Positions 26,093-35,533 of a stretch of 42,129 bases of DNA are shown here, in pieces. Every line of letters starts with the position of its first letter. Position 1 is the first letter of the stretch. The position numbers and the translations under genes were made by a program. The notes below the pieces were generated by a model, which saw only the letters and a list, made by a program, of their open reading frames with translations, made no database searches and was not told the origin of the DNA. Where the stretch lies: UHGV virus genome UHGV-0179013. One strand, given 5' to 3'. The DNA comes from a virus.

Positions 26093-26127
26093 CAATGAAT
26101 AACATGCTAATAAGCAAGGATAAGGCG

Positions 26128-27213
26128 ATGGCGAGTGTAGACTTTAGCTTTGAAGGACTTCTAATAGAGAGAATTATCGCACACAGAGTTTTTCCTAAAA
26201 GTGCTGATAAAACCTTAACTCCCCCAAAAACCAGCAAATTTTTAATGGCATTCAAACAAGATGCATTAGATGCTTTTCAGGTGAGGATTACTGAGGCCTT
26301 AGCAAGTAAATCTCATGGAATTGAAATGTCTATTGGTGGTGTTGGTGATGATTGTTTTTTGAATCTGTCGGCTTCAACGTTTTCTAATGATACAGAGCAC
26401 TTCATCAAGGTTACAGAACGACTTGCAAGTAAACTTAGCGAGGCACAATACAACAGTTCTGCCCCTGGTGGGATATTGGCTGTATTGTCAGGGCGCGTAG
26501 GAAATGACTCACTTCCATTCCTTGCGGTAATAAAAGCTGAAACCCAAAATGGTTTTAGAACTATTGAAAATGATGAGCAGGTGACAATGGAGTTTATTGC
26601 TGAGCTTCTTTTAACTCCAGCGCAACGTTTTTATAAGATTGGTTTTATAGTCCAAACTATTGCTTTACCTCCTGATAGTGATGGTAATTATAGCAGCTCA
26701 TCTTATCGTGCATTTTTGTTTGACCATTTAATGACATCGACAGAAACAAAAAACGCCGCCGGATATTTCTACTCTCGATTTTTAGATATGGATATAAGCA
26801 AATCATCAAAAAAACTTACTCAAGATTTTTTTGAGAATACTAGGGACTTCATTAATACCGCACAAATAGAGGAAAGTAATAAACTTGCGCTGCATGAGGC
26901 TTTAAGAAGTGAAATGCGCTCAAGAAAGACCACATTAAGCACTGCGGATTTCGCAGAAACCAACCTCCCAGAAGAAATGCAGGGGGAGTATTTGGATTTT
27001 ATGAAGAACAAAAGCTTCCCTGCTGCCGCAGTAACTAAAGACAATGGTTATATTGAATCCAAATTAAAAATAAGAAGCAAGCTCGTATTCTCCAATGATG
27101 TATGGGTTTCCGTACCGCCAGATCAATTAAAAAATCTTGTGGAAATTATCCCGTCGGATGATAATGAATCAACGATTTTGAAAATAAAAGGGCGACTTAA
27201 AAGTCAACAATAA
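26128..27213 (+). CDS. Cassette gene A: 361-aa protein with YejK/NdpA (NA37 nucleoid-associated protein)-like features
   Basis: ATG at 26128 behind AAGGATAAGG RBS (ORF-track start 26095 lacks an RBS). Segments SAPGGILAVLSGRVGNDSLPFLAVIKAE and C-terminal ESTILKIKGR parallel E. coli YejK ([40 protein letters not shown]). Very AT-rich; stop overlaps gene B start (TAATG). Confidence 0.45.
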   Translation: MASVDFSFEGLLIERIIAHRVFPKSADKTLTPPKTSKFLMAFKQDALDAFQVRITEALASKSHGIEMSIGGVGDDCFLNLSASTFSNDTEHFIKVTERLASKLSEAQYNSSAPGGILAVLSGRVGNDSLPFLAVIKAETQNGFRTIENDEQVTMEFIAELLLTPAQRFYKIGFIVQTIALPPDSDGNYSSSSYRAFLFDHLMTSTETKNAAGYFYSRFLDMDISKSSKKLTQDFFENTRDFINTAQIEESNKLALHEALRSEMRSRKTTLSTADFAETNLPEEMQGEYLDFMKNKSFPAAAVTKDNGYIESKLKIRSKLVFSNDVWVSVPPDQLKNLVEIIPSDDNESTILKIKGRLKSQQ

Positions 27214-28205
27214 TGGATATCAATGAGTTCCGTGAGTTTTTACAGGCAAACCAGGATGCTTACGCAGCTTGGGGGCAGTTTGTGTCTGAAGAAATTTACA
27301 GTACTCTTTGTAGCTCTCTAGGGGATGACAAAGCCAAGCTCTTTCTAAAGATCCACTCAGAACCAAGACTAAAAAGTATAGCCTCGGCATTAGGAAAGGT
27401 CAGCCGTAAAGGATATGACAATCCAGTAGTGCAAATGACTGATTTGATTGGTGTACGCTTTGTAGTTCTACTCTCTGTTGAAATCAGAGCTATCAGTGAA
27501 ATAATTGAAAACTGTGATAAATGGGATGCGACTGTTTCTAAAGACTATTTATCAGAGATTGATGTTAACCCCAAAATTTTTGACTATCAATCGCGGCATT
27601 ATGAGGTAAGGCCTAAAGCTCAATTCGATTACTGTGGACAAAGCATAACGCCTGAAATGTGCTGCGAAGTTCAAGTTAGAACATTGCTTCAGCATGCCTA
27701 TGCTGAATTAGTCCATGATAGCGTCTACAAGCCTTCCGGTGATGTACCAAAATCTGCTGAAAGGCAAATAGCGCGTAGCATGGCCTTAATGGAAACAACG
27801 GATGATCTTTTTTGCAAAACAATGGAAATCTTGGCTGACAATAGCAAAGAGAGAAATGAGCTTTTAGAATTTCTTTCAGGATATTACGCAGAAAAAATAG
27901 GGAGGCAGTATATTGATGAAGATTTGCATGTTAACTTCTCCGTCATTGACACCTTTAAAGACCACATTGACGACAACTTACCAAATAAAATACACACACT
28001 TCTCAGTGAGAAAAAATACATCTCTGCACGGATAATTAATAGAGTTGAATACAATCCTCTATTCACTCAACCATGTATATTATTTGTGTACTGGTTAGCA
28101 AGCCAGATAGACTCAGGGGAAATGCTTTCAACATGGCCCCTGCCGGGCAATATTAGTGGGCTGGAGATGGTGCTAAGTGATTTAGGGAAAAGTATTTCTC
28201 GTTAG
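27213..28205 (+). CDS. Cassette gene B: RelA/SpoT-type nucleotide pyrophosphokinase (synthetase-fold) domain protein with about 150-aa C-terminal extension of unknown function; candidate toxSAS-like effector
   Basis: Synthetase motifs in order: RLKSIASALGKVSRK, DLIGVRFVV, DYQSRHYEV, EVQVRTLLQHAYAELVHDSVYK; compare RelQ RVKSPESIIEKLERK, DIAGLRVV, GYRSYHLVV, EIQIRTLAMNFWATIEHSLNYK. Translationally coupled to gene A. Confidence 0.7.
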   Translation: MDINEFREFLQANQDAYAAWGQFVSEEIYSTLCSSLGDDKAKLFLKIHSEPRLKSIASALGKVSRKGYDNPVVQMTDLIGVRFVVLLSVEIRAISEIIENCDKWDATVSKDYLSEIDVNPKIFDYQSRHYEVRPKAQFDYCGQSITPEMCCEVQVRTLLQHAYAELVHDSVYKPSGDVPKSAERQIARSMALMETTDDLFCKTMEILADNSKERNELLEFLSGYYAEKIGRQYIDEDLHVNFSVIDTFKDHIDDNLPNKIHTLLSEKKYISARIINRVEYNPLFTQPCILFVYWLASQIDSGEMLSTWPLPGNISGLEMVLSDLGKSISR

Positions 28206-31242: not shown

Positions 31243-32229
31243 TCACCAGTTGCAGTCTGTTTGTCCGTAATCCTGTTCACTGAAGCCAGATACCGGAAGC
31301 GCACTGCGACGCCCACCTCCGGGAGCGGATGGAGTTTGCCAGGCTTCTTCGAAATGCCGATCAGGTCCAAAGAACGTTGCCGCCTGTTTGACGTATTCAG
31401 TACCAAGCTTGCCCGTCGCACGGATGTAGGCCGCGTAGCGCTGCACACCCGCCAGCAGCTCTGATGCCGTAGCGCCGTCGGCGATGCGAGCCTTCCAGTG
31501 TTTGTAGGCCGTTGCCTTCGGGTTGCCACCAGCGCGTTTTGGGTATGCCTGCCACGCTGTTTCAAATTCAGGTGAATAATCCTGCTTTGCAGAACGAGCT
31601 GGTGCAGGAGCGTCAGCGGATGCGCCATTAGTGTTTTTAATCTTTGTAGTAATCTCTGTTGTATTCTCTGTATACGTCTCACTTTTCAACGTAGGGTCAC
31701 TTACGTCAGGACGTGACAGGGGTTCCACTTCAACGGAGGGGGTATTCCGTTTCAACGTAATAGCTGTTCCAGTTTTGTTATCTTGTGGCGCTTCTTTGAT
31801 GGTGTTAGTGATGTGCGCGATAGCCCCAGGATTAACGCCAATAAACAGAACATTACTCATTACTGAACCTGCGGTGGTGTTAACCGTACGAAGCTCAAGC
31901 GTAATAAGTCCGGCATCACGCAGACGTTTAAGGGCATCGGTTGCTTCGCGTTTGGAGAAGCCAAACTGGTCAGCAAACGCCTGATAGTTACGCTGCAGCT
32001 TGTCGCCGTGGAAACGCTTGCGATAGCCCGTCAACTCCCCGGTAGTCTCATTGCGCACTTCCGCGGGGCGATACCAGTACACAATCTCGGCAAGCAGAGT
32101 TATCGCGGTCTGATCCGGGCGCCCGCTTGGCAGGGTTATATGCCGCCACCAGTTAGCGGGGGTGACGTTACCTGTAAAGCTTATCCGGCCGATAGCCGTT
32201 ACAGCGTCGGTTGGTGCGTGGGTTGTCAT
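31243..32229 (-). CDS. Phage replication initiation / replisome organiser protein (lambda O position)
   Basis: ATG at 32229 overlapping upstream stop (ATGA); N-terminal HTH-like region and C-terminal domain FETAWQAYPKR ... typical of phage replisome organisers. Confidence 0.6.
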   Translation of the reverse strand: MTTHAPTDAVTAIGRISFTGNVTPANWWRHITLPSGRPDQTAITLLAEIVYWYRPAEVRNETTGELTGYRKRFHGDKLQRNYQAFADQFGFSKREATDALKRLRDAGLITLELRTVNTTAGSVMSNVLFIGVNPGAIAHITNTIKEAPQDNKTGTAITLKRNTPSVEVEPLSRPDVSDPTLKSETYTENTTEITTKIKNTNGASADAPAPARSAKQDYSPEFETAWQAYPKRAGGNPKATAYKHWKARIADGATASELLAGVQRYAAYIRATGKLGTEYVKQAATFFGPDRHFEEAWQTPSAPGGGRRSALPVSGFSEQDYGQTDCNW

Positions 32230-32534
32230 TGCCCCCCCTCCCACTGCCATGACGGCATCAAAACAAAGCCCATAGGATCGCTGACCTTTGCACACCTAAC
32301 ATCACCTGGCTGCACAATCTCCATCCCGATGTATCCGGCACAAAGTAAGAGCTCAAGAGCAATGAAAAGCTCATCAACGGAGCAACAGCAGAATTCTGCG
32401 AATTCCGATACACTGAGATAACGAAAACCTGAACAATCGCAGCTACCGGACATCCAGATGCGGCACATAATCAGGCGATGAAGGGCGCTTTCAAAAGGAT
32501 GTTTATTGATAAAATCAGGGATAGACTTACTCAT
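32226..32534 (-). CDS. Hypothetical Cys-rich small protein
   Basis: 102 aa, stop/start overlapped on both sides; multiple Cys (CDCSGF, CCCS); function unknown. Confidence 0.35.
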   Translation of the reverse strand: MSKSIPDFINKHPFESALHRLIMCRIWMSGSCDCSGFRYLSVSEFAEFCCCSVDELFIALELLLCAGYIGMEIVQPGDVRCAKVSDPMGFVLMPSWQWEGGQ

Positions 32535-33379
32535 GCGGCACCTGCCAACTCTTTGTCGTGGGTAAATTCACCTTTCCAGCGCTTCTTCATCGGAAGATGC
32601 CCCTTGAGATAGTGTCGGTAAATCCATACCGCGCCTTTGCGCAGAAGGATCGGTTTGAATGTGTCACGCATCTCGCCGTCGTCCTGTTCTACTTGACCAG
32701 AACGCTCACTGAGGTAGAGATCGCGTGCATAGTGATGAACCCGCCAGCGCGGATATTTAGCCTTTGGCTGGTCGTCGTAGAGCCAGTTATGTTCGAACAA
32801 AAACGCATTAACCTGCTGGACGTTGACGCCGTTCAGCTGCTTACAGAACTGGCAAGGAGACATACCCGGCTGAAAGAGGTTTTCCAGGTGCTCGATGTAC
32901 TTTGCCTGTCGCTCGACGTATCCAAGCGCACGCCGGGCAGCTTCACGTTCGTCAGCCCATGCACGCGCAGCAGCCACCTCATCTGAGAAATCAGGCAGAT
33001 CTGAGTTAACCGCCACCAGCTTACCTGTGCGAAAGTCGAGGAAGGTCTGATTCACCTGCAAGCGGAATACTGGTGAGATCCACCCGGCATACTCAATGGC
33101 CAGCAGTTCGTGAGCGAAAGTGCCGCCATTCCTGCCTTCGTCTGAAACTATGCAAATCTGCACAGTTTCTTTTTCCAGCTCAGCGATTAGCGATTTAGCA
33201 GTTTGAGTGCGCAACCACTGGGCAGGGGCTTTGTTAGCACCAAGCCCACTCGCCTTGTGCAAAGCATTCAGGTTAAAACGCCCCTCAGCATCGGTAGTGA
33301 TTTCCACACCTGCAATAACAGGTAGGCTTTCAGCACCATTACTTGAATTATTCAGATGTTTATTGATATTATTTTTCAC
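32531..33379 (-). CDS. KilA-N domain protein with C-terminal ANT-like antirepressor domain
   Basis: 282 aa; N-terminal VIAGVEITTDAEGRFNLNALHKASG pattern of KilA-N domains; C-terminal region typical of phage antirepressor C-domains. Confidence 0.6.
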   Translation of the reverse strand: MKNNINKHLNNSSNGAESLPVIAGVEITTDAEGRFNLNALHKASGLGANKAPAQWLRTQTAKSLIAELEKETVQICIVSDEGRNGGTFAHELLAIEYAGWISPVFRLQVNQTFLDFRTGKLVAVNSDLPDFSDEVAAARAWADEREAARRALGYVERQAKYIEHLENLFQPGMSPCQFCKQLNGVNVQQVNAFLFEHNWLYDDQPKAKYPRWRVHHYARDLYLSERSGQVEQDDGEMRDTFKPILLRKGAVWIYRHYLKGHLPMKKRWKGEFTHDKELAGAA

Positions 33380-33690
33380 GAATTTACCTCGCCAGGTAGA
33401 TTTATGCAGGTATGAACAGTAGTGAAGTTAGAAAAGGCCGGTGAGGGAACCCATTCTCTTTCCGGCCTTTTTCTTGCCGTCTCTCCGATCTGCTGTTGTC
33501 GTCTGACCTTTAGCCCACTGGCGCGCGTAGTGAAGACAATCGTCATACGCCCTGCCTTTACGGGTTGCCTGCGACATCCGGCGGTAGTGGTCAACGCCGA
33601 TCTGCCCCCCCCCTGACACACCTGCTCAGAAAATCCCTCGGACGCCAGCTGCGCGGCAATATTCTTGCGAATAAAATCTACCGGATTCAT
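33376..33690 (-). CDS. Small early protein in cII position, reading frame ambiguous across a G9 homopolymer
   Basis: ATG at 33690 behind GGAGG RBS; the N-terminal 29 codons run into G9 (33605-33613), where a second frame (ORF 33428-33619) opens; as-is frame ends at an ATGA overlap with the KilA-N gene. Confidence 0.4.
   Translation of the reverse strand: MNPVDFIRKNIAAQLASEGFSEQVCQGGGRSALTTTAGCRRQPVKAGRMTIVFTTRASGLKVRRQQQIGETARKRPEREWVPSPAFSNFTTVHTCINLPGEVNS
33434..33475 (+). terminator. Plus-strand intrinsic terminator antisense to the early operon (oop-like antisense RNA 3' end)
   Basis: Roughly 15-bp interrupted stem (AAGGCCGG ... CCGGCCTT with inner GAGGGAA/TTCTCTT pairing) followed by TTTTTCTT on the plus strand; no plus-strand gene ends here. 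Confidence 0.45.
33605..33613. repeat. Homopolymer tract (C9 on plus strand, G9 in the coding strand) at a reading-frame junction
   Basis: Nine consecutive C at 33605-33613; a +1 nt change would fuse the ATG-initiated N-terminus to the alternative downstream frame. Confidence 0.9.
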
Positions 33691-33694
33691 ACTG

Positions 33695-34174
33695 TTATCC
33701 CCTCCAGAACATCAAATGAGACAGGATATGGAAAACCCGATCGCTAAACTTGCGCTTAACTACTGGTACAAAGTGCTTATTGCTGGCGGATTCTTTGTCT
33801 TCTTGGTGAATGGAACCGGGATCCTCACTGCATACCCGACAGCAGGTACTGGACTCATTTCCCTTGGTTGCGCTTTGTGGGGAGTCGGCGAATGGATTAA
33901 CCACCCCTACCAGGAGGTATTGATCCCCGGAGTTTTTGGCCGACCATCCGGGAAGCTGTCCGGTTACCCCAGAAAAGTCAGCTTGGCCGGTATTGCCTTC
34001 GATGTTATCGGTGGCGCCCTTATCGTCTTTGGAATTGTTAAATTGTTCCAATGACCACCCAATTAGACTTACACCCCCAGTAGCTGGATCGATAACTACA
34101 GACCCAGGAAACTTACGCTCAAGATCAACCAGCATCATCCTTAGCGCCTCAAGGTCAGAATATCGCTGTGGCAT
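33695..34174 (-). CDS. Hypothetical early protein immediately downstream of cro (159 aa)
   Basis: ATG at 34174 behind GAGGTG RBS, 2 nt after the Cro-like stop; low-complexity Gly/Ser/Asp-rich middle; fully overlapped by a membrane-like antisense ORF. Confidence 0.4.
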   Translation of the reverse strand: MPQRYSDLEALRMMLVDLERKFPGSVVIDPATGGVSLIGWSLEQFNNSKDDKGATDNIEGNTGQADFSGVTGQLPGWSAKNSGDQYLLVGVVNPFADSPQSATKGNESSTCCRVCSEDPGSIHQEDKESASNKHFVPVVKRKFSDRVFHILSHLMFWRG

Positions 34175-34175
34175 G

Positions 34176-34415
34176 TCACACCTCTGCGCTTCTATTCCTC
34201 AATGGAGAAAAAATGAGATTTTCTTTTTTCAAACTGAGGTTGGGGGAAACCTTAGATACAGCAACCTCAATACGTGAGGCCATTGCTACAGATGGACGAC
34301 GGAACCCTAAAGCCATTTGATTTAAGTAAGCGACGCTCGTGCCCGATAGTTGAGCCAACTGCTTCCACTCATCTGTAGTCATAACGTCCCTGATTGAGAG
34401 CAATCCTCTATACAT
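34176..34415 (-). CDS. Cro-like HTH transcriptional regulator
   Basis: 79 aa from ATG at 34415 (GGAGG RBS), or 68 aa from ATG at 34382; HTH segment WKQLAQLSGTSVAYLNQMALGFRRPSVAMASRIEV; divergent from repressor gene across the operator region. Confidence 0.65.
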   Translation of the reverse strand: MYRGLLSIRDVMTTDEWKQLAQLSGTSVAYLNQMALGFRRPSVAMASRIEVAVSKVSPNLSLKKENLIFSPLRNRSAEV

Positions 34416-34440
34416 GTTACCTCCCGCTCTGTATTCATTA

Positions 34441-34507
34441 TTAGCAACGTGCTAACATTAGCACACCACCAAACAATGTAGCAATACGCTACAAAGCACA
34501 TTGCTAA
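34441..34507. promoter_or_regulatory. Immunity-region operator cluster with TTAGCA/TGCTAA half-sites
   Basis: TTAGCAacgTGCTAA (34441-34455), TTAGCA (34459), TGTAGCAatacGCTACA (34478-34494), TGCTAA (34502) in the 105-bp divergent cro/repressor intergenic region. Confidence 0.5.
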
Positions 34508-34520
34508 CAAAGGGGCCAAC

Positions 34521-34976
34521 ATGGAAATCAAAGATATTCGATTAAATAACCTACAATCAGTAATTCAACGCAGCGGTTTAACGCAGACTGAATTGGCTTT
34601 GAAATGTGATATATCTCCTTCACTTATCAGCCAGATAATGACTAAACGCAGAAATATGGGGACCGCTTTTGCCCGGAAACTGGAAGGTAGGCTAAATCTT
34701 TCAGAAGGGTGGTTTGACATGCCTCACTCCCTGCTAGACTCGCCGTGGCATCTGGCAAAAATGGGAGAAAAAGACAATCTAGTGGCTGGTCAAGAACAAC
34801 CATTAAACAAAAGAGAGAGCCGTCTTGTAGAGCTATTCAGACAGATGCCTGAAAGCGAAAAAGACAGAATAATAAATGATTTAGCACAAAAAAAACGAGA
34901 TTTTGACAAACTTCTTGATGAACTAATGGCCGTGAAAGCTGCAAAGATGCCAATTGATAAAAATGAAAATGAATAA
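34521..34976 (+). CDS. CI-like prophage repressor, XRE-type HTH, without S24 peptidase (non-autocleavable) domain
   Basis: 151 aa; N-terminal HTH LTQTELALKCDISPSLISQIM; C-terminal part is charged/coiled-coil-like with no Ser-Lys peptidase motif; AAGGGG RBS. Confidence 0.65.
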   Translation: MEIKDIRLNNLQSVIQRSGLTQTELALKCDISPSLISQIMTKRRNMGTAFARKLEGRLNLSEGWFDMPHSLLDSPWHLAKMGEKDNLVAGQEQPLNKRESRLVELFRQMPESEKDRIINDLAQKKRDFDKLLDELMAVKAAKMPIDKNENE

Positions 34977-35001
34977 TAAAAACATTGTGTTATAAAAAAA
35001 C

Positions 35002-35023
35002 AGCAAAATATTAGCATTTTGCT
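35002..35023. terminator. Hairpin AGCAAAAT-ATTAGC-ATTTTGCT after repressor gene (possible terminator; loop carries an operator half-site)
   Basis: Perfect 8-bp inverted repeat preceded by an A7 run; loop sequence ATTAGC matches the TTAGCA operator half-site. Confidence 0.3.
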
Positions 35024-35024
35024 A

Positions 35025-35085
35025 TTGTCAAAATTAACGCGCAGCGCTACATTCACCTCATCCAGTAAATTAGTGAGGTGAATGT
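35025..35085 (+). promoter_or_regulatory. Candidate promoter (TTGTCA-17 bp-TACATT) overlapped by a perfect 13-bp inverted repeat TACATTCACCTCA-N11-TGAGGTGAATGTA that covers the -10, RBS and start region of the downstream gene
   Basis: Inverted repeat arms at 35048-35060 and 35074-35086; right arm contains the GAGGTG Shine-Dalgarno. Confidence 0.45.
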
Positions 35086-35086
35086 A

Positions 35087-35533
35087 ATGTTCAGTACAAA
35101 TCACGACCCAAGATCAATTAATTCTCTTTTGCTTTGTGCTCAGGTAGCGTTATTGAATGGTTCTGTTTCAAATATCGATATTATCAATGTTTTAGACGTA
35201 GCGCAGGACCTAATTTCATTAACCGTCACCAGCTCGGCTGATAATGAAATAAGCGCCACTAATTCAAACAAAGAACAACCCACACCACGATACGCTCCTT
35301 ACACTGGCAGTATTAACATTGGTCAACGCATACGACTGGCACGCAAATACTCTGACCTAAAACAGAGCCATATAGCTAACGCTTTAGGGGTAACCATTCA
35401 AGCGGTGTCCTTATGGGAAAATGACTCAACAGTTCCCACCTGCGACAAAATTATCCCACTGGCTAACGTACTTAAATGCGATCCGATGTGGTTATTATCA
35501 GGTGCTCCTTTAGAAGTCACAGAGGAATCCTGA
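35087..35533 (+). CDS. Hypothetical protein with C-terminal XRE-type HTH domain (148 aa)
   Basis: ATG at 35087 behind GAGGTG (ORF-track start 35078 is GTG); HTH IGQRIRLARKYSDLKQSHIANALGVTIQAVSLWEN; AT-rich locus downstream of repressor (rex-like position). Confidence 0.5.
   Translation: MFSTNHDPRSINSLLLCAQVALLNGSVSNIDIINVLDVAQDLISLTVTSSADNEISATNSNKEQPTPRYAPYTGSINIGQRIRLARKYSDLKQSHIANALGVTIQAVSLWENDSTVPTCDKIIPLANVLKCDPMWLLSGAPLEVTEES

Follow-up and report, generated by a model that had tools for sequence, protein, structure and literature searches.

Gene content of the early region

The window in this study is the whole stretch of DNA that was analysed, 42,129 nucleotides of the virus genome UHGV-0179013, and the prophage in it is of the Citrobacter/Salmonella type. 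Its early operon lies on the minus strand, and our analysis centres on the junction between the second and third genes of this operon (Table 1). The initial annotation had seen an oop-like terminator across the 3′ end of the gene in the position of lambda cII; the overlap and the position stand, whereas similarity to CII does not, as hhalign gave a probability of 0.5% against lambda CII and there was no Pfam match, and the phrog_4439 protein was rejected as a CII homologue. AlphaFold predicts for this protein three helices, a fold that gave no PDB match at E ≤ 0.001, and a disordered tail (residues 68-87, pLDDT below 50). In the window the gene is frameshifted, with two frames matching profile positions 1-33 and 27-73, and the literal open reading frame (33690-33376) reads through the hairpin described below. 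The reading with a tract of 10 G residues (G10) has 87 residues and occurs as an exact in-frame version in other assemblies (P0001 and L103); in this conserved frame, the terminator lies opposite the last 15 codons. The next gene of the operon encodes a protein with KilA-N (Pfam, E 1.3e-20) and ANT (E 2e-5) domains that also matches PHROG 63, "anti-repressor Ant" (E 1.2e-32), and it is by these matches antirepressor-like.

Table 1. Coordinates, in the window, of the predicted antisense RNA and of the early-region features around it.
Feature	Position	Strand	Basis or remark
Predicted antisense small RNA, ~97 nt	33378..33476	+	covariance model; promoter and terminator positions
5′ stem-loop, GAAUUUACCU-CGCC-AGGUAGAUUU	33380..33403	+	RNA folding
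Single-stranded linker, ~28 nt	33404..33431	+	folds
Intrinsic terminator (predicted)	33432..33475	+	core hairpin 33436-33467
Terminator A tract	33432-33435	+	able to pair with U tract
Terminator U tract, UUUUUCUU	33468-33475	+	
Predicted sigma-70 extended −10 promoter	33343..33372	+	consensus scan; TTGAAT-18-TGaTATTAT
Promoter elements		+	−35 TTGAAT 33343-33348; TG 33364-33365; −10 TATTAT 33367-33372
71-aa ORF	33207-33422	+	antisense to KilA-N gene; no family match
Early operon order		−	cro-like, phrog_4439 gene, KilA-N/ANT, O-like, DnaC/IstB-like, DnaB-like
cI-like gene	34521-34976	divergent	
cro-like HTH gene	34415-34176	−	
Target gene 1, PHROG 4439, cII position	33428..33690	−	stop TAA 33430-33428; conserved reading needs G10
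Poly-G tract, G9 (C9 on +)	33605-33613	−	frameshifts phrog_4439 gene in the window
Target gene 2, KilA-N + ANT (KilAC)	32531..33379	−	GTG start 33379-33377; Shine-Dalgarno GAGG 33390-33387
O-like gene	31243-32295	−	more than 1 kb beyond promoter

Three further features of the window were recorded. The intergenic region between the cI-like and cro-like genes (34438-34510) holds operator-like palindromes, TTAGCAACGTGCTAA at 34441-34455 and TAGCAATACGCT / AGCACATTGCTA at 34479-34506, and a terminator-like call on the minus strand at 34479-34506 is probably one of the operators. Between the cro-like gene and the small PHROG 4439 gene, a plus-strand ORF (33729-34054) with three hydrophobic segments overlaps a minus-strand ORF of 159 aa (33695-34174) and is better conserved than the latter between the window and L003; it is missing from L011, has no Pfam or PHROG match, and probably represents a membrane-protein moron that lies antisense within the early operon. 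Farther away, a plus-strand cassette (26095-28205) sits among minus-strand genes, and its two genes, overlapping at stop and start, encode an NA37/YejK-like nucleoid-associated protein (E 1.9e-12) and a RelA_SpoT-domain protein (E 1.6e-16); judged from these matches, it looks like a small-alarmone-synthetase toxin or a defence-type moron.

A terminator-like hairpin on the plus strand

Read directly from the sequence, a hairpin followed by TTTTTCTT is present at 33434-33475 on the plus strand, and as RNA the segment 33432-33475 reads AAAA-GGCCGG-U-GAGGGAA-CCCA-UUCUCUU-U-CCGGCC-UUUUUCUU, so that on the transcribed strand a U tract comes directly after a G+C-rich hairpin, as in intrinsic terminators. 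For the RNA of 33425-33485 the folding energy is −26.9 kcal/mol (z = −4.0; none of 200 shuffles did as well), compared to −19.6 kcal/mol (z = −2.2) for the minus-strand copy of the hairpin region, which is less stable because two G.U pairs turn into A.C. Our built-in terminator scan missed the hairpin because of the internal bulge in its stem; in a hairpin-plus-T-tract scan of both strands of the whole window, its core (−19.8 kcal/mol) ranked first among 102 candidates. The fold, this rank and the conservation described below confirm the plus-strand terminator-like hairpin of the initial annotation. A shuffle control led us to drop single-sequence energy as an argument for significance, since the same scan found at least one equally stable candidate in 13 of 20 dinucleotide-shuffled versions of the window (42 kb), and the energy is therefore not beyond chance window-wide. 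The significance of the hairpin, in our reading of the alignments, comes from its conservation.

It had also been remarked that no plus-strand gene ends at this hairpin, and in agreement with this, neither the ORF list nor the family searches of the window yielded a credible one: the only ORF nearby is that of 71 aa (Table 1), and the closest real plus-strand genes finish at 28205.

A conserved promoter-like element upstream of the hairpin

The predicted promoter, 64 nt upstream of the hairpin core and within codons 3-13 of the minus-strand KilA-N gene, combines a −35 of the form TTGnnn with the TGn and TAnnnT of a sigma-70 extended −10 promoter, at matching spacing and with conservation. In a 7-kb scan it was the sole plus-strand promoter-like match less than 1.6 kb from the hairpin, and from the density of matches in shuffles we estimate that a match would fall at that place by chance in about 5% of cases. 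Across 14 distinct variants, the columns CTTGA, TG, TA and the last T of the −10 are invariant, the spacer is free to vary, and conservation ceases just upstream of the −35. The element is retained where the next gene is of the DUF4222 type or another gene, and there it is intergenic or in a decaying mini-ORF. On the other side, it overlaps a conserved N-terminal peptide (MKN...KSS), its 18-nt spacer is above the optimal length, and some variants have a weak −10 (TAAGGT).

If the element is a promoter, the plus-strand membrane-protein gene at 33729-34054 could be what it drives, with the hairpin as a leader or attenuator of that mRNA. The three-segment hydrophobic ORF is only 250 nt downstream, and it is better conserved between the window and L003 than the overlapping minus-strand ORF; yet the hairpin and U5 would form a strong stop in front of it, a weak promoter-like site (TTGCGA-17-CATACT, ~33658-33690, read by eye) is closer to it, and in L011, L013 and many other variants the module is present without the gene, with the cro-like gene directly followed by the small gene. 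Given these many module-bearing variants that lack it, we judged the membrane gene unlikely to be the real target of the promoter, and the leader or attenuator reading as a whole has in our view a very slim chance.

The predicted antisense RNA

Taken together, the hairpin probably terminates an antisense small RNA of ~97 nt that would start at this promoter (91 to 100 nt in relatives). From the spacing of the elements, its 5′ end is predicted at 33378-33380, 6-8 nt past the −10, and its 3′ end within the U tract; this start abuts the complement of the KilA-N GTG (33379-33377), and the 5′ end covers both the GTG start and the Shine-Dalgarno sequence of the KilA-N/ANT gene. Over its length the RNA is fully complementary to this start codon and Shine-Dalgarno sequence, to the 48-nt spacer and to the last 15 codons of the upstream gene. 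The 5′ stem-loop displays the anti-Shine-Dalgarno CCUC (33387-33390) at the top of its stem and in its loop, and folds at −8.9 kcal/mol on the plus strand versus −5.3 for the complement. The evidence for this 5′ hairpin across relatives comes from per-sequence folds, in which each of five sequence types forms one, with CCUC, CCCC or CUCC at the apex. The linker between the two stem-loops holds the UUA (33428-33430) that is the complement of the target gene's stop codon, and no conserved ORF was found within the predicted RNA. Against an antisense RNA, it may be noted that Lys codons (AAG AAA AAG) give rise to the U tract and (P/A)-G codons to the outer stem, so that coding constraint could have a share in their conservation.

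Conservation and covariation among relatives

We collected relatives through protein scans of genomes (L001, Citrobacter youngae CCUG 30791) and of viral contigs (L002-L009 and L022-L101), a DNA pattern scan of viral contigs (L010-L018), and a 17-mer metagenome scan that returned mostly chance matches, from which the covariance model picked 14 true loci. Searches for close relatives by megablast (phages and E. coli genomes) and by blastn (E. coli genomes) returned none, and blastn against phages gave two weak matches only. The carriers of the module were prophages of the Citrobacter and Salmonella types and some isolated phages. Within the clade whose protein ends in ...KKK(P/A)G...(P/T)GLF and the stop codon, every member carries the antisense hairpin and UUUUUCUU; hairpin and U tract are placed 6 to 37 nt before the stop codon, in about 20 distinct sequences. 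More than 10 distinct hairpin sequences occur in this clade with variable encoded amino acids, and pairing is retained across tails as different as KRMGSLT, REVAPP, RAGGVH, KGGGTS and others. The outer stem is found as GGCCGG/CCGGCC, GCCGGG/CCCGGC or GCCCGG/CCGGGC, all paired, and the inner stem as GAGGGAA/UUCUCUU, GGAG/CUCU, UGAG/CUCA or UUGGG/CCCGA. In L009 and L048 a TGA stop lies within the loop, and the 3′ arm, which is noncoding there, still pairs by compensatory changes (GCCCGG/CCGGGC).

In an alignment of 20 distinct sequences, 94.7% of the helix cells are paired, compared to 56-72% in slid-partner controls, two-sided changes are seen at 5 helix pairs, and the covariation score is 0.275 compared to 0.163 in shuffles (0 of 500 as high), with these figures somewhat inflated as the alignment was fitted to the model and the sequences are mutually related. 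The covariance model (R1) was built from 13 variants; model and consensus fold comprise the terminator helix only, because the MAFFT alignment of the 5′ stem-loop was out of structural register. In the window the model scores 76.7 bits on the plus strand (E 7e-13) and 13 bits on the opposite strand, a contrast that is partly by construction, and it finds 31 viral-contig and 14 metagenome loci, all of them antisense to the phrog_4439 gene.

These data bear on whether the hairpin has a dedicated function at all. The stem could simply follow from quasi-palindromic Pro/Ala-Gly codons (CCN GGN), which occur twice in the basic C-terminal tail, and from the Lys codons, and the promoter match could reflect chance plus the conservation of the next gene's N terminus. 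The outer arms do encode the partly conserved K-K-(P/A)-G and (P/T)-G-L-F, equally stable hairpins occur in shuffles, and promoter-like matches are frequent (~9 expected per 7 kb on both strands). However, pairing is retained while the amino acids change (A/P, T/P and the whole loop peptide), the inner stem covaries (GGAG/CUCU, UGAG/CUCA, UUGGG/CCCGA), and the hairpin survives in L048 with half of it noncoding; the tail is predicted to be disordered, which leaves the pattern without a reason at the protein level, and the critical promoter bases are invariant even where the overlapping peptide has decayed (L078 and L034). We therefore consider a hairpin without dedicated function improbable.

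Further related loci were also seen. The same antisense module, scoring 73 bits, is present at 1713-1805 of L019 (OM284015.1, "Elizabethkingia phage EKP1"), where the KilA-N/BRO-type gene is reduced to its first codons, with the promoter within them; the immunity and replication region of this phage is of the enterobacterial type, and the Flavobacteriia host given for it appears doubtful. A distant clade of the target gene family (L086-L101, tail ...AKQWAGKQKGKK before the stop codon) is without the embedded antisense hairpin, and in several of its members (L098, L101) a hairpin of canonical form, flanked on either side by a T tract (for example GCCGCCTAACCAGCGGC TTTTTTCA), lies directly 3′ of the stop codon. 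The BZS1-type lineage has an antisense promoter-like element of its own (TTGACG-18-CACAAT), followed by a hairpin and UUUUUGCUUUCUU, at the same junction and in the same orientation. This unit, in L020 (Serratia phage BZS1, 1700-1800) and also in L065 and L068, is shorter (~66 nt) and consists of an anti-Shine-Dalgarno sequence, the hairpin GCCGCGCAG...CUGCUCGGC and UUUUUGCUUUCUU, upstream of a different KilA-N gene. The covariance model did not detect it, and from its sequence it is apparently independent of the module in the window.

Which strand carries the signal

The main rival to an antisense RNA is a hairpin that acts on the sense (minus) strand, as a tR1-like or bidirectional terminator or as a 3′ mRNA-stabilising stem of the small early gene. 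Such an element would control the passage of transcription to the KilA-N and replication genes, and an antisense RNA would not be needed. Hairpin energies show no consistent difference between the two strands across variants, with the sense copy being the more stable one in L028, and this lack of a consistent antisense advantage favours the rival. We based the assignment of the strand on wobble counts and on the conservation of the U tract and the promoter in place of hairpin free energies. Among the helix cells, 37 are G.U, which pair on the plus strand only, versus 5 A.C, which pair on the minus strand only; this bias of 37:5 favours the antisense strand. The plus-strand U tract is universal among the variants, whereas most of them keep the hairpin with CUGUUCUGAC and not a U tract as the sense-side tail. 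The sense tail is moderately U-rich in the window and in EKP1-type variants: in the window, UUUUCUAACUU comes after the minus copy, whose folding energy is −14.8 to −19.6 kcal/mol, and the EKP1-type variants carry UUUGUUUUGA on the sense side. A sense or bidirectional terminator of canonical form, directly after the stop codon, is moreover what the distant clade L086-L101 has. A sense-strand element would nevertheless leave the conserved promoter-like element and the module boundary unexplained. Wobble bias, U-tract conservation and covariance-model scores all point to the plus (antisense) strand, and we hold the sense-strand or bidirectional terminator to be unlikely as the main explanation; the hairpin may have some bidirectional action.

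The short plus-strand antisense RNA suggested in the initial annotation is in this way supported in silico by the distance of the promoter, the conservation, the covariation, the strand-specific U tract and the wobble bias.

A variable poly-G tract in the upstream gene

The poly-G tract of the phrog_4439 gene ranges from G7 to G11 among relatives (L001-L013, L022-L083, L103 and L104) and at 11 of the 27 distinct viral-contig loci its length disrupts the reading frame of the gene. The same gene type occurs with G8, G9, G10 and G11, and in a near-identical prophage the tract is G10, which is in frame and was seen on 3 contigs, versus 11 contigs for the G9 of the window; the G9 form is represented by P0014 and L104, identical to the window, and the G10 form by P0001 and L103. 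The isolated phages EKP1, BZS1 and YeP1 have an in-frame G6 or G8. This length variation could be phase variation or could come from assembly errors at a homopolymer. The shifted frame of the window runs for 104 aa up to a TGA that overlaps the KilA-N GTG start, and the alternative frame ends in a TGA overlapping the next start (GTGA/ATGA) in the window and in two other variant types.

One may speculate that the poly-G tract, which lies in the target gene 130 nt upstream, acts together with the antisense RNA as a single phase-variable, heritable switch of prophage stability. One tract length would stop ribosomes 48 nt before the KilA-N/ANT start and leave the junction free for the antisense RNA. 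With another length, ribosomes would read the alternative frame through the target of the RNA, and through this the antirepressor-like gene would become translationally coupled and the antisense control would be overridden. We give such a combined switch a slim chance only.

Comparison with known phage antisense RNAs

According to reviews (PMC12197685, PMC5415839, PMC7067206), OOP, sar and c4 are the known phage examples of such RNAs, and OOP RNA has been reported also in Stx phages and, as OOP-BTP1, in the Salmonella prophage BTP1 (PMC7067206, PMC12197685). The oop-like layout proposed at the outset agrees in its geometry with the lambda pO/oop and P22 Psar/sar loci that we fetched. In silico, the predicted RNA has the position and build of oop: both RNAs are short and convergent with an early operon of the rightward type, start at an extended −10 promoter situated within the beginning of the next gene, consist of two stem-loops and have an intrinsic terminator embedded opposite the last ~15-18 codons of the gene that comes after cro. 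In lambda, pO (TTGAGT-17-TGtCATAAT) overlaps the O start, and the oop terminator lies within the 3′ coding region of cII, with a U tract that is the complement of Asn-Lys-Lys codons; the U tract is a complement of Lys codons in both systems (...NKKRPAATER in lambda, ...KKKAGK here). There are differences as well. pO lies in the replication gene O, whereas the predicted promoter lies in a KilA-N/ANT gene or its remnant; oop has 77 nt compared to ~97 nt; oop begins just short of the O Shine-Dalgarno sequence, whereas the predicted RNA covers both the Shine-Dalgarno sequence and the start codon of the next gene; and oop overlaps cII, whereas the gene overlapped here, of PHROG 4439, is not a CII homologue. 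Homology to oop was rejected, with no match of the covariance model in the cII-oop-O region at E ≤ 10, chance-level words only in blastn-short and nhmmer searches, and a global alignment at z = 0.39 versus shuffles. Rfam searches gave no match at E ≤ 10 in 32500-35500 and none at the gathering score in the whole window; for oop membership Rfam cannot decide, as it has no oop model and lambda's own oop region gives no Rfam match.

In its 5′ half, the predicted RNA is closer to sar than to oop. In the fetched immI region of P22, sar spans 599-532, next to the ant start at 600, with the promoter TGcTATACT and an anti-Shine-Dalgarno sequence in its first loop. From its predicted start site, the RNA described here, too, runs opposite the start codon and ribosome-binding site of an antirepressor-type (ANT/KilAC) gene, abuts the start codon with its 5′ end and has the anti-Shine-Dalgarno sequence in its first hairpin; both promoters have a TGn extended −10 within the first codons of the target, and both RNAs span the spacer to the preceding small gene. 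Homology to sar (RF00262) was rejected, as there was no match at E ≤ 10, whereas the positive control, P22 immI, scored 97.8 bits. In genomic setting, sar belongs to immI (mnt-arc-ant), whereas the predicted RNA lies in the early operon beside cro-like, cI-like and replication genes. Further, sar finishes right at the arc stop codon, and its final hairpin has no U tract, whereas here the terminator falls within the coding sequence of the upstream gene and does have one.

A third comparison is offered by the c4 RNA of P1/P7, which represses an antirepressor gene at the ribosome-binding region (PMC12197685). The RNA proposed here would also be an RNA repressor of an antirepressor gene at this region; c4 is processed from the transcript of its own target, whereas the predicted RNA would be a convergent cis-antisense gene, and c4 had no Rfam match in the window. 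In sum, the predicted RNA appears built like oop and sar and, by these searches, to be a member of neither family.

Possible mechanism and implications

The architecture suggests how such an RNA could act. Transcription of the plus strand from the promoter in the first KilA-N/ANT codons would run convergent with the minus-strand early operon, and the 5′ stem-loop of the product would offer its anti-Shine-Dalgarno sequence for pairing with the early mRNA. As for P22 sar, this pairing would mask the ribosome-binding site and start codon and block translation of the antirepressor-like gene. The duplex of ~97 bp over the gene junction would be a substrate for RNase III, so that the message of the upstream gene would be separated by the cut and destabilised, as with lambda oop, for which a duplex with the early mRNA and RNase III cleavage are described by Krinke and Wulff in the account of PMC7067206. 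Convergent transcription may contribute interference. The module is kept where the KilA-N gene is replaced, which suggests that the upstream gene, or the whole operon, is also a target of the predicted RNA.

Our literature searches turned up no antisense RNA described at the junction to a KilA-N gene, and the predicted RNA has been overlooked by annotation pipelines. If the RNA is made, it would represent a new family of conserved phage cis-antisense regulators, absent from Rfam, in which the oop arrangement, with a terminator embedded in the end of the post-cro gene, is joined to the sar arrangement, with an anti-Shine-Dalgarno loop directed at an antirepressor-type gene. It would also mean that the same regulatory layout arose on unrelated genes. 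A role of the predicted RNA in the lysis-lysogeny decision is plausible, and its existence would indicate that the PHROG 4439 and KilA-N/ANT proteins are dosage-sensitive in the early decision of these prophages.
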